From an uncultured Actinomycetota bacterium (GTDB lineage Bacteria; Actinomycetota; Actinomycetes; Propionibacteriales; Nocardioidaceae), in NCBI GenBank assembly GCA_963763225.1, contig CAVXNT010000007.1, forward strand, positions 50,982-114,981: DNA of 64,000 nucleotides. Reading direction: 5' to 3'. Shown here in pieces: positions 6,116-35,246 of the stretch (position 1 is the stretch's first letter; each line of letters begins with the position of its first letter). Below the pieces are notes generated by a model. The model made no database searches. It was given only the letters and a program-made list of their open reading frames with translations, and was not told the DNA's origin. The position numbers were made by a program, and so were the translations under genes.

Positions 6116-6191
6116 CGGCGCGGCCTCGGGATGTCATACGGACAGAGCAAGGGGTGACACCGTCCGCATGACGTCCTGGGGTGGGCAGATC
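6116..6191. repeat. REP-like palindromic intergenic repeat, empty copy of the IS110 target repeat
   Basis: Aligns without gaps to 21061-21117 joined to 22540-22558, 65 of 76 identical by manual alignment. Confidence 0.85.
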
Positions 6192-20575: not shown

Positions 20576-21040
20576 GCACCGGCGACTCGCTGGGACGGCG
20601 CCGATGCGGGCCGCCCTGGACGAGGCGCGCGCCGCGCTGGCCGACCGGCGACGTCCCGATCGGGGCGGTCGTCCTCGACGCCGGACGGTACGCTGGTCGG
20701 GCGCGGCCGCAACGTCCGCGAGGCCGAGCCGACCCGACCGGCCACGCCGAGGTGGTCGCGCTGCGCGAGGCCGCGCCGGCGCGCGGCGAGTGGCGGCTCG
20801 ACGGGCTGCACGCTCGTCGTCACCCTCGAGCCGTGCACGATGTGCGCCGGCGCCGGCGGTCCTGGCGCGGGTCGACCGGATCGTCTTCGGCGCCTACGAC
20901 GCCAAGGCCGGCGCCGTCGGCAGCCTGTGGGACGTCGTCCGCGACCGCCGGCTCAACCACCGGCCCGAGGTGCGTCGCCGGGGTGCTCGCCGACGGAGTC
21001 GACGGCGCTGCTCGAGGAGTTCTTCGCCGGGCACCGCTGA
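20572..21040 (+). CDS. tadA: tRNA adenosine(34) deaminase, frameshifted
   Basis: DVPIGAV, DPTGHAEVVALR, VTLEPCTMCAGA, FGAYDAKAGAVGS and RLNHRP. Confidence 0.85.
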
Positions 21041-21060: not shown

Positions 21061-21117
21061 CGGCGCGGCCCCGGGACGTCATACGGACGGGGCAACGGGT
21101 GGCACCGTCCGTATGAC
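21061..21117. repeat. REP-like palindrome interrupted by IS110: left arm, loop and first part of the right arm (rest at 22540-22558)
   Basis: GCCCCGGGACGTCATACGGACGG (21068-21090) is the exact reverse complement of CCGTCCGTATGAC (21105-21117) joined to GTCCCGGGGC (22540-22549). Confidence 0.9.
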
Positions 21118-21159
21118 TGTGAGTGTTGGTGCAGCGGCCCGCGTTGGTGTGGTGGGCTG

Positions 21160-21370
21160 TGGGCCAGTTGGTCCCGGGTGTGACTCACCGTATGACTGGC
21201 TTCGTGCCTTCAACACGACTTGTCCGTCCGGGGCTGCTGGCCCGGTCCAAGCAGAGCAACTGACCTGATCAGGAGCTTGACCATTCGGCGTGTCCGCGCC
21301 GGATGTGTCCCATCACAGTCTCGTCGTCACTCCGCCTGGACCGAACCGTCACGTTCCCCCCCAGGCAAGG
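21160..21370 (+). ncRNA. Putative IS110 bridge RNA (boundaries approximate)
   Basis: Non-coding region upstream of the recombinase with segments at 21188-21196, 21215-21219, 21271-21276 and 21313-21320 matching target and donor halves in the expected order and orientation. Confidence 0.7.
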
Positions 21371-21380
21371 AGTAGAACGC

Positions 21381-22532
21381 ATGACCAGTGTGACCATGCT
21401 GGGCGAGCATGTCGACGTGGTGATCGGGGTCGACACGCACGTCGAGACCCACACCGCGTGTGCGGTGCGCGTCGACAACGGCGCAGTGCTGGACCGGATC
21501 ACCGTGCCCACCACGACGGCCGGCTATCGCGAGCTGGTCGAGTTCGCCGACACTGTGTGCGAGGAGCTGACCGGTCAACTCGCTCGTGCCGCACACGAAC
21601 CCAGCCTGGACCTCGAGCCGGTGGTGCTGACCGCACGTGCGTGGGCCATCGAGGGCACCGGCGGGCACGGCGCCGGCTTGAGCCGGGTTCTCGAGCAGGG
21701 CCACGAGCTGGTCTTCGAGCTGGACCGCCCCCAACGGGCAAGGCGTCGCCACGGCAAGAAGTCCGACCCGCTCGATGCCGAGCGCGCGGCCCGCGAGGCG
21801 CTGTCTCGGCCCCGCTTGGGCACCCCGCGGGCCGGGACCGGGGACCGGCAGGTCCTGGCCCAGTTGCTCTCGGCCCGCGCCGGCGCGGTCCAGGCCGCCA
21901 CCGACGCGCAACGCCAGCTGTTCTCCTGGGTGGTCTCAGCTCCCGAACAGATCCGGGAGCGGCTGCGGGGCCGGCGCGGTCACGACCTGCTCACCGCCGC
22001 CGCCCGGCTCCGTGGACACGCCACCTGGGGCCGCGACGCCCAGCTGATCGCTACCACCCTGGCCACCGTGGCCCGCCGGGCCCTGACGCTGATCGAAGAG
22101 GCCAAGGGGTACGACAAGCAGATCCGCGACCTGGTCCGCCAGTGGCGTCCCGACCTGCTCAACCAGGTCGGAGTCGGCCCGATCGTGGCCGCGACCGTGC
22201 TGTGCGCGTGGTCCCACCCCGGCCGGATCCACTCCGAGGCCGCCTTTGCCATGCTCGCCGGCGCCGCCCCGATCCCCGCCAACAGCGGACAGGTCGCCCA
22301 CCGCTACCGGCTCAACCCCTACGGCGACCGACGCCTCAACGCCGCCCTGCACACCATCGCGCTCACCAGGAAACGCTGCCACGCCCCGACCCAGGCCTAC
22401 TACGAACGCCGCACCGCTCAAGGCAAGAGCCCCCGCGAGATCCGCCGCTGCCTCAAGCGCTACATCGCCCGAGACCTCTACCGACTCCTCGAGCACCACC
22501 AACCCACGTCACCAGGGGTTGACGCGACATAG
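21381..22532 (+). CDS. IS110 family recombinase/transposase (383 aa), intact
   Basis: RuvC-like DEDD residues (GVDTH, AIEGTG, KSDPLDA), GVGP and PANSG catalytic serine, GDRRLNAALH, RCLKRYIAR; AAGGAG RBS. Confidence 0.95.
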   Translation: MTSVTMLGEHVDVVIGVDTHVETHTACAVRVDNGAVLDRITVPTTTAGYRELVEFADTVCEELTGQLARAAHEPSLDLEPVVLTARAWAIEGTGGHGAGLSRVLEQGHELVFELDRPQRARRRHGKKSDPLDAERAAREALSRPRLGTPRAGTGDRQVLAQLLSARAGAVQAATDAQRQLFSWVVSAPEQIRERLRGRRGHDLLTAAARLRGHATWGRDAQLIATTLATVARRALTLIEEAKGYDKQIRDLVRQWRPDLLNQVGVGPIVAATVLCAWSHPGRIHSEAAFAMLAGAAPIPANSGQVAHRYRLNPYGDRRLNAALHTIALTRKRCHAPTQAYYERRTAQGKSPREIRRCLKRYIARDLYRLLEHHQPTSPGVDAT

Positions 22533-22622
22533 GAGCGTCGTCCCGGGGCGAGCGGATCGTCGTGATCCTCGTCGAGCAGCTCGGCTGACGCGCGCGCTGG
22601 GGCCGTGGCGGACAATTGCCGG

Positions 22623-22964
22623 GTGATCGACGTCGAGCCGGAGCCGTTCGAGGCGATGGTCGCCGAGGCGCTGGACGGGCTGCCCGACGAGCTCGGCGCG
22701 CTGATGAGCAACGTCGCGGTCGTCGTCGAGCACGGACGCGGCCCGCGGGGGCTGCTCGGGCTCTACCAGGGCATCCCGCTGACCCGCCGCACGACGTCGT
22801 ACTCCGCCGTCCTGCCCGACCGGATCACGATCTACCGCCGCGCGATCTGCCGGATCTGCACCACCGAGGCCGAGGTGGTGGAGCAGGTCCGCCGCACCGT
22901 GGTGCACGAGGTCGGGCACCACTTCGGCATCTCCGACGCGCGCCTGCGTCAGCTCGGGTGGTGA
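22623..22964 (+). CDS. Zincin-like metallopeptidase (DUF1025 type)
   Basis: LLGLYQGIPLT, PDRITIYR and HEVGHHFGI. Confidence 0.85.
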   Translation: MIDVEPEPFEAMVAEALDGLPDELGALMSNVAVVVEHGRGPRGLLGLYQGIPLTRRTTSYSAVLPDRITIYRRAICRICTTEAEVVEQVRRTVVHEVGHHFGISDARLRQLGW

Positions 22965-23848
22965 TCGCCGAGCACCTCGCGCCAGGAGTGCTGCGGCTCG
23001 TAGCCGAGCAGCTCGCGGGCCTTGTCGATGGCGTAGAACGTCTCGTCGCGGCCCATCTCCCGCCGCACCGGGACGTCGTCGTAGAAGCGGTCCCGGACCT
23101 CCTGCGTCGTCGCGGCGACCGACATGTCCGCGTTCGCGACGTTGAAGACCTGGTAGCCCAGCCCGTCGGTCTCCAAGCACCGCTGCACCATCTGGCCCAG
23201 GTCGCGGGTGTCGATGTAGGCGAAGATGTTGCGCCGCCGCAGCGACGGGTCCTCGAGGAACGGCGGGAACATGTCGGCGTACTCGTGCGGCTCGATGACG
23301 TTGTTGATCCGCAGCCCGTAGATGTCGGCGCCGGTCCGGGCCTGGAACGAGCGCGCCGTCACCTCGTTGGCGACCTTGGACATCGCGTAGGAGTCCTCGG
23401 GGACCGTCGGGTGCTCCTCGTCGACCGGCACGTAGAGGGGGCGGCGCTCGCCCTGGGCGAAGCAGATCCCGTACGTCGTCTCCGAGGACGCGAAGACGAC
23501 CTTGCGGACGCCGAGGCGGGTCGCGGCCTCGAGCACGTGATAGGTGCTGAGCACGTTGGTCGCGTACGTCGCGGCGTCGGACCGCAGCAGGATGGCCGGC
23601 ACCGCGGCGAAGTGCACGACCGCGTCGTACGTCGGCTTCTCGGGCAGGTCGAGCTCGTCGAAGGTCGCCAGCCCGGCGAGTGCCGAGTAGGTCTCGCCCG
23701 CGTCGGTGAGGTCGACCCGGAGGTCGGCGACGTCCGGGTGCCCGAGCGGGACGAGGTCGGCGTTCGTGACGTGGTGGCCCAGGGAGGCGAGGTACGGCGC
23801 GACGTGCTTGCCGGCCTTGCCGCTGCCACCGGTGAAGAAGATGCGCAT
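22949..23848 (-). CDS. NAD-dependent epimerase/dehydratase
   Basis: TGGSGKAG, ASSETTYG and YAMSK. Confidence 0.88.
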   Translation of the reverse strand: MRIFFTGGSGKAGKHVAPYLASLGHHVTNADLVPLGHPDVADLRVDLTDAGETYSALAGLATFDELDLPEKPTYDAVVHFAAVPAILLRSDAATYATNVLSTYHVLEAATRLGVRKVVFASSETTYGICFAQGERRPLYVPVDEEHPTVPEDSYAMSKVANEVTARSFQARTGADIYGLRINNVIEPHEYADMFPPFLEDPSLRRRNIFAYIDTRDLGQMVQRCLETDGLGYQVFNVANADMSVAATTQEVRDRFYDDVPVRREMGRDETFYAIDKARELLGYEPQHSWREVLGDHHPS

Positions 23849-23876
23849 GACCGACCGTACCCACCGGCGTCCCGGC

Positions 23877-26267
23877 TCACCGGCTCCGGGGCGTGAACGG
23901 CACCTCGCCGCGAAGGTCACCGAGCCCGCGGGCCACCAGGAGTCGTCCGGACGTGAGCGGCCGCCAGCCGTCGTCGGTCCAGGTACGGGCCGCCCGCGGG
24001 TCGACGGTGACCTCGACCCGCCGCTGCTCGCCGGCCGCGAGGTCGACGGTCGTCCAGCCGACGAGGCGGACCGGCTGGTCGTCGCGCTCCTCCGGATCGG
24101 GCTCGAGGTAGACCTGCACGACTTCGCGCGACCTGCGGGCCGAGACGTTGGTCAGGTCCACCGCGACGACGCCGCCCGCGACGGAGACCTCGCCGTACTC
24201 CCACTCGCCGTAGCCCAGTCCCTCGCCGAACCAGTACGCCGGGGCGGGCGCCCGGCGAGCGGCGTACCCGCGGTAGCCGACGTGGACGCCCTCGTCGTAC
24301 CGGAGCTCCCGTCGGTCGGGACGACGTCCCAGGCGGGGGAGGAGCCATCGGCGGCCGGGAACGAGGTGACCAGGCGCCCGGCCGGCTCGATGTCGCCGAG
24401 CAGGGCGGCGGCGACGGCGTGCCCACCCTCCTGACCGGGCAGCCCGGCCCAGAGGATCGCGTCGACCTCGTCCCGCCAGGGCATCAGCACCGGCGTGGCG
24501 GCGTTGACGACCACGACCGTGCGCCGGGCGGCGGCCACGACCGCGGCGACGAGCTCGTCCTGGCGACCGGGGAGGGCCAGCGTGGCCTTGTCGAACGCCT
24601 CGGTCTCCTGCTCCTCGGTCAGGCCGACGACCACGACCGCGACGTCGGCGTCCGCCGCGGCGGCCACGGCGGACGCGATCGCGTCGTCGTCGGCAGGCGG
24701 GGTCGGCTCCGCGACCAGGCCGAGCCCGGACCAGCCGTCGAGCGGTCAGGTCGGCCACCAGGTCCCGAGGCTCGGGCAGGACCACGTCGGTGGTCCAGCC
24801 GGGCGGGCGGAGGAAGTCGCCGCCGACGTCGCCGGACTCGGAGCCGAGCGTGACCTCGTGCGACTCCGCGCCGATCGTCACCGTCCCGGTCCCGACGCCC
24901 AGCACCCCGACGCGCATGGCGCCGGCGGGCACCGTCGCCGACAGCACGACCCGGGTGACCGGCTCGGGGAGGTCCTCGTCGGGCATGGCGCCGACGGTCC
25001 TCGCCTCGTCCGACAGGGTCTCGGCGAGCAGCGTCCCGGAGGCGCCGTACCTGCGGACCCGCATGCCGGGTGCGCCGGTCAGCGGATCCGTGAGCACGCC
25101 GGGGAGTGCCGCTCGCGGGCGGCTCCGCACGGCGACGCCGTCGACGACGGTCACGCCGTCGGTGGCGGCCCGCAGGCCGTCGGCGACGCTCACCTGGTGC
25201 GGTGCTCGCACCGCCGCGGAGCCCCCGCCCATGCAGGTGGTCTCCAGTGCCGGACGGCCGATCAGGGCCAGCGTCGCGCCACGGGCCAGCGGGAGGACGC
25301 CGTCGTTGGCGAGCACGGTCATCCCCTCGGCGGCCAGGCGTGTCAGCTGTTCGCGGCGCACGGCGCCGCCCGGGTCCGGCAGGCCGGTCCGCCACGACCG
25401 GTGCTCGTCGACGGCGCCGACGCGGGCGGCCAGCAGCAGCAGCCGTCGCAGGTGGTCGTCGACCACGGCCTCGTCGACCTCGCCGGCCTCGACGGCCGCC
25501 ACCAGGGCGGGGCCCCAGGGGCCCTCCGGGCCGGGCATCACCAGGTCGAGCCCACCGTTGGCCGAGGCAGCGGTCGTCCTCGTCGCGAACCAGTCGGACA
25601 TGACCAGGCCGCGCCAGCGCCACTCGCCCTTGAGGATCTCGTTGATGACGTGGTCCTGCTCGGTCGCCGCGACACCGTTGACGTCGTTGTAGGCGGCCAT
25701 CACCGACCACGGGTCGGCGTCCTCGACCGCGATCTCGAACGGCAGCAGGTAGAGCTCGCGCAGGGTCCGCTCGTCCAGGACGCTGTCGACCAGCTGCCGG
25801 TCGGTCTCGGACTCGTTGGCGACCAGGTGCTTCACGCAGGCCCCGATGCCCTGTGCCTGGAGGCCGGAGACGTACGCCGCCGCGAGGTGGCCGGTGAGCA
25901 ACGGGTCCTCCGAGTAGGCCTCGAACAGCCGGCCGCCCAGGGGTGTGCGGTGCAGGTTCACCGTCGGGCCGAGGACGACATGGATGTGTTGCCGCTCCGC
26001 CTCCTCGGCAAGCAGCCGGCCGACCTCCGCGGCGGTCTCGGCGCGCCACGAGGACGCAAGCAGGGTGGCGTTGGGGAACAGGCAGGTTGTCGGGCCGCTG
26101 GTGAAGTCCAGTCCCCGCACGCCGGTCGGGCCGTCCGAGAACGCCATCGGCGCGAGCCCGATCTCGTCGTCGCCGTGCAGCGTGAACATCGTCGCGCCGG
26201 TGAGGAGGCGGACCTTGCGGTCGAGGGGGAGCCGGGCGATGCGCTCGCCCAGGGTTGCGATGTCCAT
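23877..26267 (-). CDS. GH3 beta-glucosidase with a PA14-like insert and Fn3-like C-terminus, frameshifted
   Basis: [32 protein letters not shown] and EGVHVGYR. Confidence 0.9.
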
Positions 26268-35156: not shown

Positions 35157-35246
35157 GGTGGCGTGTCCGAGCGGCCTAAGGAGAACGCCTCGAAAGCGTT
35201 TGTGGGTGCAAGCCCACCGAGGGTTCAAATCCCTCCGCCACCGCCA
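35157..35246 (+). tRNA. tRNA-Ser (anticodon CGA)
   Basis: Acceptor stem GGTGGCG/CGCCACC, G discriminator plus CCA, anticodon arm AACGC-CTCGAAA-GCGTT, long variable arm, T-loop GTTCAAATC. Confidence 0.96.

Follow-up and report, generated by a model that had tools for sequence, protein, structure and literature searches.

The closest studied relative of the element described here is ISEc21, not IS621. Insertion of ISEc21 without target duplication and a promoter at its circle junction have been demonstrated experimentally (PMC11187229); the accessible text of its descriptions treats the target loop only and leaves the role of the longer RNA open (PMC11187229; 10.1101/2024.04.26.591405). For ISAar29 a bridge RNA has been placed in the left end, as a prediction only (PMC11208160 Fig. 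6d and ED Fig. 10c). IS621 and ISCro4, in the available portions of PMC11208158 and PMC11208160, need a matching core in target and donor, with CT preferred and the second T almost invariant, and have their handshake at positions 6-7. The bridge editors in use similarly need matching CT or GT cores in target and donor: the supplement of PMC11208160 describes a design tool that returns an error on a core mismatch, and candidate sites have been filtered for matching cores, as far as 10.1101/2025.05.14.653916 could be consulted.

The window analysed here is a stretch of 64,000 nucleotides, and by sequence comparison it holds a member of the ISEc21/ISAar29-like subgroup of IS110 elements, not an element of the IS621 type. 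Within its family the element is unremarkable. It lies in a palindromic repeat found throughout the host genome, and its predicted bridge RNA probably guides the joining of the target to a circular donor without a shared two-base core. The guides, a crossover after position 9 and the inheritance of positions 7-9 at the junctions are established at the level of homologous sequences.

The element and its recombinase

The boundaries of the element (Table 1) are set independently by empty copies of the target repeat. In the genome a 13-mer that spans the insertion point is found 53 times, counting both strands, and the insertion point so defined coincides exactly with the junctions proposed in an earlier sequence-only reading of the window. 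The left end is 263 nt long, the right end extends only 7 nt past the stop codon and the ends are not complementary; there are neither terminal inverted repeats nor a two-base duplication. A second copy in the host genome (L102; G000 C4:600097-601350) shares its first base and the 9-nt flank in front of it, and lies within a degenerate repeat with different upstream DNA. Its left end differs by one base, in a C run, the coding part is damaged in patches and the right end is absent, which may be true decay or long-read error. An intact reading frame and two copies with near-identical left ends suggest that the element is functional.

The recombinase reading frame is open and preceded by an AGGAG ribosome site. 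Its product of 383 aa matches PF01548 and PF02371 above their cut-offs, and scores 150 bits against the NCBIfam IS110 model NF033542 (cut-off 140). All 25 aligned homologues have D18, E91, D129, D132 and S302, and these residues align with the catalytic motifs of IS621 in a profile alignment, with the IS621 residues numbered as in the accessible text of PMC11208158. A phmmer search against the PDB gave no match for the recombinase; a profile search reached the structures of IS621 and ISCro4/IS622 as distant relatives (E 2e-20 and 1e-18). Identity to an ISEc21-like plasmid protein of 358 aa is 36% over 364 aa (E 7e-59), the term 'ISEc21-like' being assigned from protein length and the target listed for ISEc21 (in the available part of PMC13604230), as the records give no such name. 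The length of the window recombinase fits the range of 345-385 aa stated for the ISEc21 cluster in the accessible text of 10.1101/2024.04.26.591405. In six relatives (L164, L165, L166, L171, L179 and L180) the recombinase extends into an extra C-terminal stretch, possibly a helix-turn-helix.

Domains with catalytic residues, a long non-coding left end and a specific repeat target entered without duplication place the element in the IS110 group. The IS1111 group, which has long subterminal inverted repeats, the RNA in the right end and a reversed guide order, was rejected: here the RNA is in the left end, and the bottom-strand match comes before the top-strand match. The domain HMMs, invariant residues and empty-site boundaries thus bear out the sequence-only reading of an IS110 element with an intact DEDD/Ser recombinase, and its assignment to a high-GC actinobacterial host agrees with the nearest relatives, which come from Propionibacteriales, Nocardioides and Kocuria. 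A search of viral contigs gave no relative.

Table 1. Features of the element and its insertion site (window coordinates).
Feature	Position	Strand	Basis
IS110-family insertion sequence, 1422 bp	21118..22539	+	empty repeat copies, C4 copy, ends kept in homologues
IS110 recombinase, 383 aa, D18/E91/D129/D132 + S302	21381..22532	+	family HMMs, homologue alignment
Predicted bridge RNA	21132..21343	+	scaffold covariation, conserved left end
Predicted bridge RNA, 5' stem-loop	~21132-21162
Predicted bridge RNA, target-binding loop	21164-21240
Predicted bridge RNA, donor-binding loop within enclosing helix	21243-21343
Left target guide (LTG), 9 nt	21188..21196	+	identical to 21109-21117
Right guide of target loop (RTG)	21212..21220	+	antisense match, covariation
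Left donor guide (LDG)	21268..21276	+	21271-21276 identical to 22531-22536
Right guide of donor loop (RDG)	21313..21321	+	antisense match, covariation
Right donor, positions 10-14, first bases of element	21118..21122	+	complementary to 21313-21317; co-changes with guide in homologues
Left donor, overlaps stop codon; last three bases are donor positions 7-9	22529..22539	+	conserved right ends
Left part of interrupted ~60-bp palindromic REP-like repeat	21068..21117	+	empty copies
Left target, positions 1-9	21109-21117	+	identical to left target guide
Rest of repeat	22540..22549	+	empty copies
Right target, positions 10-14	22540-22544	+	two bases match guide
Repeat copies	21068-21117 and about 57 kb contig-wide; second copy 6130-6175
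Predicted -35 hexamer TTGACG	22519..22524	+	sequence; inference
Predicted -10 hexamer with TG ahead, complete only in circle junction	21121..21126	+	sequence; inference

The target repeat

The flanks of the element are the two halves of a ~60-bp palindrome, and the insertion lies within one arm. This dispersed palindrome family has a fixed 46-bp core. The host genome (G000; 4.1 Mb, 61% complete) contains 75 of these palindromic loci, and repeats related to them occur in several genomes of its genus. The 9-nt left flank occurs 105 times in the genome against 3.6 expected, and 85 of 85 genomic matches to the 11-nt target fall inside the palindromic repeat. The three closest relatives (L001, L002 and L003) also lie in palindromes that start like the repeat of the window, and in L002/L003 a guide change follows a one-base change in the target. 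Most close relatives, inspected by eye, have no such palindromic repeat at their target.

Identity of the repeat with the CGTC-tagged REPs was considered and dropped. In those, according to the accessible text of PMC3733652, an unpaired terminal CGTC accompanies a stem of 8-9 bp and a loop of 4-5 nt; here CGTC lies inside a stem of ~26 bp and is not an unpaired terminal tag. The REP-associated Y1 tyrosine transposase (PF01797) was not found in the 61%-complete host genome.

The predicted bridge RNA

The left end can be drawn as a bridge RNA with two internal loops, in which the left guides address the bottom strand and the right guides the top strand, the LDG being the weakest. The sequence-only reading had located four guide segments here, in the order LTG-RTG-LDG-RDG, and all four were found as given, with the polarity it described. 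What the two antisense matches face proved to be different, as both span the cut. In the RTG, only two nucleotides of the 5-nt match at the right junction (21215-21219) face the target (21215-21216 with 22540-22541); 21212-21214 do not pair with it, and the remaining 21217-21219 face the right end of the element itself (22537-22539), that is, they would pair with the incoming donor end (handshake and position 9). Similarly, the 8-nt match of the RDG at the left junction (21313-21320) consists of 21313-21317, which pair with the left end of the element, and 21318-21320, which would pair with the incoming target at 21115-21117 (handshake and position 9). The LDG likely forms eight pairs with 21270 bulged, and ends 3 nt before the cut.

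Resampling the left end 200,000 times under a first-order Markov model gave frequencies of 0.03% for the 9-mer, 1.1% for the 8-mer, 4.2% for the 6-mer and 22.7% for the 5-mer, and never all four together. These motifs were picked after the fact, and therefore covariation across species is the real test. In the RNA scaffold 21 of 56 pairs have changed on both sides, which is above all 500 shuffles and all slid controls, on a structure adapted from a consensus and with related sequences that can by themselves exceed shuffles. Within the left end, conservation is highest in the donor loop. An Rfam search returned no relevant family.

Covariation of guides and insertion sites

Two sets of homologues were compared. 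The close set comprises 80 fetched relatives of 57-73% identity, with the donor loop in view in 72 of them and in the window, and its junctions were anchored on a fixed motif of the left end. For the wider set, relatives down to about 35% identity were added from GTDB and metagenomes: of 235 loci, 145 could be parsed at the left junction and 115 at both, giving 109 distinct insertions, of which 103 were kept. The 126 loci excluded were not parsed at both ends or were duplicates; the six dropped afterwards had a misplaced junction (L022, L037, L216), a misparsed RTG (L120, L144) or an N (L017). Positions 7-9 were not used in placing the junctions of the wider set. Identity at LTG positions 1-6 is partly built in by the parser in this set, and therefore the LTG was tested on 64 loci of the close set.

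In those 64 loci LTG positions 1-6 equal the left flank in 336 of 384 bases, against 204 +/- 8.5 when shuffled (0 of 20,000 shuffles reached the observed value); with one locus per guide the agreement is 125 of 138 against 65 +/- 6. In all, 23 different left guides match 23 different flanks among the close relatives, and the wider set holds 55 distinct left guides among 103 insertions, a natural reprogramming. The RTG agrees with the right flank's first base in 67 of 69 close relatives, with the second in 52 of 63 and with the third in 32 of 62; past the third base (positions 13-14) these relatives gave no signal. Agreement at the first base is 99 of 103 in the wider set, and the window element itself matches only two of five target bases. 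The covariation that the sequence-only reading had put forward as its check is therefore found for the segments at 21188 and 21215 alike, and guides held invariant across homologues, which would have counted against it, were looked for and not seen: the guides change with the flanks of each element.

On a FastTree phylogeny of 105 proteins the independent pairs in support of the LTG and of position 10 number 6-11; 8 of 8 favour A at left guide position 5, and 5.5-5.9 of 6 favour right guide position 10, none opposite. The handshake has only 1-4 independent pairs per state, none significant alone. In all 109 insertions the LDG hexamer and the right end agree (96 with one form, 13 with another), which amounts to about two independent changes.

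Crossover register and core

The register was taken from the 15-nt spacer between the target guides in the IS621 template, as given in supplementary file 7 of PMC11208160. The corresponding stretch here, 21197-21211, is also 15 nt long and matches that spacer by eye at 9 of 15 bases without gaps. Each guide follows a bulged base, three pairs and three linker bases. Placed in the IS621 register, the left guide has position 9 as its last base, and the right guides cover five bases to the right and four to the left of the cut, as they do in IS621. An earlier numbering with a CT/CG core was dropped after this scaffold comparison.

Positions 8-9, the CT core of IS621, then read A-C in the target and T-C in the donor, and the window element has one shared base at the join and not the usual two. 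Position 8 differs between the left and right junctions in 90 of 103 insertions. In 89 of these the left-junction base is matched by the donor-loop right guide, and in 89 by the LTG; the target-loop right guide matches the right-junction base in all 90. At position 7 the junctions differ in 27 of 103, and 25 and 23 of these obey the same crossed pairing. Both sides have C at position 9 in 98 of 103; in the remaining five the left junction has T, A or G and the right C, and the LTG matches the odd base in four. Counting shared bases 5' of the cut, 87 insertions have one, ten have two, one has three and five have none, so that only 11 of 103 share two or more. Pairing at position 6 is rare, at 16 and 6 of 109. 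The LDG hexamer always ends three bases before the cut, two off the IS621 register.

The left junction carries positions 7-9 of the target and the right junction those of the donor, as read with a right-end pattern that could miss a junction rewritten from the bottom strand. Non-canonical right ends number 28 of 224; by eye none looked swapped, and they belong to other subgroups, to elements with longer proteins, to secondary insertions or to a one-base deletion. In L037 the left junction starts target-like and ends in six donor-like bases beside a normal right junction; it may have arisen by insertion at a half-matching site or through repair of a patch from the bottom strand. At five loci (L004, L161, L198, L236 and L249) another IS110-like element has inserted into the right end or beside it, so that right ends, too, serve as targets.

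Comparison with described elements

ISEc21, known from the seekRNA work (PMC11187229), and ISMch6 share with the window element the recombinase subgroup marked by GVDTH...EGTG...KSD..D. The ISEc21-like plasmid elements have the same four-guide layout, the donor end GTC and the offset LDG, and past the part examined as seekRNA they too have a donor loop. At position 9, five of six carry T in the left junction and C in the right, and thus share no base (L266 was misparsed and lies outside this count). In three of the plasmid loci (L265, L266 and L268) the right flank starts like the left end of the element itself and not like the listed target, which suggests donor-like half-match sites. The window element differs from ISEc21 in its actinobacterial host, in a repeat target in place of IS3-family genes, in a longer donor-loop hairpin and in an insert of ~25 aa in the RuvC domain. 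The ISAar29 cluster (ISAar16/18/29 and ISBli24/31; PMC11208160) falls in the same actinobacterial clade by the domain alignments printed there, the comparison being of protein only.

With IS621 and ISCro4/IS622 (PDB 8WT6, 9T56) the element has in common the DEDD and serine residues, a left-end RNA, guide order and polarity, the scaffold register, the logic of the handshake and a repeat target. It departs from them in lacking an identical dinucleotide core, in that position 9 is usually C and position 8 differs and acts in the handshake (at 7-8 instead of 6-7), in a mostly unpaired position 6 and in the LDG offset. The description of the locus as IS621-type in the sequence-only reading consequently stands for the order of the guides and fails for the shared CT dinucleotide, the handshake position and the LDG. 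Its view that the class is known and the orthologue and guide code uncharacterised applies to this orthologue only: ISEc21, with the same layout, has been tested and reprogrammed (PMC11187229, accessible text) and a bridge RNA has been drawn for ISAar29 (PMC11208160, available part).

The REP-targeting ISPpu10 and ISPpu9 of Pseudomonas putida likewise have a palindromic repeat as their insertion site, with an upstream arm able to fold onto the left target; unlike the window element, ISPpu10 has a reported CT core (10.64898/2026.03.19.712850, available text). A literature search covering the text of open papers and the main text of bioRxiv preprints found no passage on a one-base, mismatched or absent core in IS110 elements, nor any describing a donor-loop code of this kind.

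A predicted promoter at the circle junction

The -35 and -10 hexamers listed in Table 1 would lie 18 nt apart across the junction of a circle. TTGAC is conserved in the right ends of homologues, and the -10 hexamer reads GAGGAT in 59, GAGTGT in 9 and GAGTAT in 7 of 103. A sigma-70 scan of the linear locus found no promoter-like site. No circle junction was present in the host assembly; contigs from 4 of the 15 listed sequencing runs held only relatives, with neither an empty-site nor a circle joint, which is neutral as evidence. The listed runs include no RNA holder (best share of words 0.18), and this counts neither way.

Proposed mechanism and alternatives

By analogy with IS621 and ISEc21, the element would be copied out as a circle, and the circle junction would form the RNA promoter (-35 at 22519, -10 at 21121). 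The bridge RNA would load the recombinase, and a tetramer would bind the target loop and the donor loop, the target being read by nine pairs on the bottom strand and two to three on the top strand. Both top strands would be cut after the C at position 9 through Ser302 and then swapped. Before the exchange each right guide would mismatch its own DNA at position 8 and after it both would pair; two base pairs would be gained, which would tilt the reaction from excision towards insertion, with position 8 doing the job of IS621 positions 6-7. The one-to-three change described for the IS621 handshake (PMC13626964, accessible text) is comparable to this gain. Finally, the bottom strand would be overwritten from the top strand.

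For that last step, top-strand-only insertion finished by host replication is judged slightly likelier than bottom-strand cutting with nick-directed repair, the LDG offset giving a slight lean in its direction. Copy-out with top-strand insertion as described for CazIS110-1 would yield the junction pattern seen here and serves as a lead to mechanism, not as a sequence comparison (10.1101/2025.10.25.684509, available text). Top-strand inheritance at the junctions cannot separate the routes, because IS621 products are also expected to be nicked and mismatched: its bottom cut implies such a bottom strand in the accessible parts of PMC11208158 and PMC13626964. With that cut position and the repair remarks in the same sources, top-strand inheritance was dropped as a novelty. 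Single-strand excision has been reported for IS621 (10.64898/2026.08.31.748434, available text).

A double-strand exchange in the style of IS621, in which the same guides act, the bottom strands are also cut and swapped and the ligated top strand serves as template for repairing mismatches at positions 6-9, has a substantial minority share of the probability. That share is the one allotted to bottom-strand completion, the sole difference from the preferred reading. Bottom-strand cleavage is seen in IS621 structures (PMC11208158, accessible text), the nicked, mismatched products expected there would also give top-strand inheritance (PMC13626964, available part), and the donor-like left junction of L037 could be a patch repaired the other way. 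Against it, with the LDG two nucleotides off the IS621 register, a donor bottom cut set by that guide would probably misalign with the cut in the target, and for CazIS110-1 top-strand insertion exceeds bottom-strand insertion >1,300-fold in the available text of 10.1101/2025.10.25.684509. It is unlikely that only the target loop matters, as in seekRNA, with the donor loop dispensable or used for excision only and direct strand transfer between target-flanked copies: the conservation of the donor loop argues against this, and its positions 7-8 follow the target and not the donor, so that it must meet the target strand. The accessible texts do record that a 58-nt target-loop RNA is enough for movement of an ISEc21 mini-IS (PMC11187229) and that 90.4% of CazIS110-1 transcripts are target-loop-only RNA (10.1101/2025.10.25.684509).

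A register off by one is quite improbable; in it the donor would have an ordinary CT core (22539 + 21118), and the C-N core of the target would mismatch at its second base. The donor does read C then T across the junction, and U follows the left target guide in most loci. The gapless match to the IS621 scaffold nevertheless puts the cut after the ninth guide base, at the next base only 3 of 103 targets agree with the donor and the RTG reads this base in 99 of 103, the first base of the element is A in a subclade and in ISEc21-like copies, and the shift would still leave no shared dinucleotide. Least credible of all is protein recognition of the repeat hairpin, with the left-end matches as relics copied from the flanks. 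The insertion is indeed located in a hairpin, and a target stem-loop raises the efficiency of ISPpu10 (10.64898/2026.03.19.712850, available text), so a contribution is possible. The match of 23 left guides to 23 flanks in close relatives speaks against such recognition, as do the antisense guides on the other side, which covary too, and the occurrence of one guide beside several flanks that nearly match it, which would follow if the guide had been there first.

Extended beyond the window, the preferred reading of guided joining without a shared core would make a large IS110 clade, including the E. coli-active ISEc21, recombine with no requirement for core identity; all bases 5' of the cut would follow the top strand, position 8 would be a directional switch, C at position 9 a mere preference and the offset LDG the mark of top-strand-only insertion. 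This extension is as probable as its opposite. Across the clade, the rule of no shared dinucleotide is well supported as a pattern of sequences, and as a mechanism it is a proposal. If the extension is true, bridge editors could join two sites sharing no crossover bases. A clade that joins A-C to T-C, sometimes with no shared base, would make the core a feature of the IS621 branch and not of the chemistry. The comparisons also provide a guide code for high-GC hosts (9-nt left guide, 2-3-nt right guide, handshake at 7-8) and a candidate for the donor-loop reading left open for ISEc21, and make one-strand versus two-strand insertion testable in an element active in E. coli.

Genomic neighbourhood

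The gene upstream of the element (window 20590-21040), presumably a tadA-like nucleoside deaminase, is broken by frameshifts, with motifs seen across three frames. Many neighbouring genes are frameshifted too, likely through long-read assembly error. Downstream lie a zincin-like metallopeptidase (PF06262; window 22605-22964) and a convergent NAD-dependent epimerase (PF01370; window 22949-23920), both unrelated to the element, and the window also carries a tRNA-Ser(CGA) at 35157-35246.
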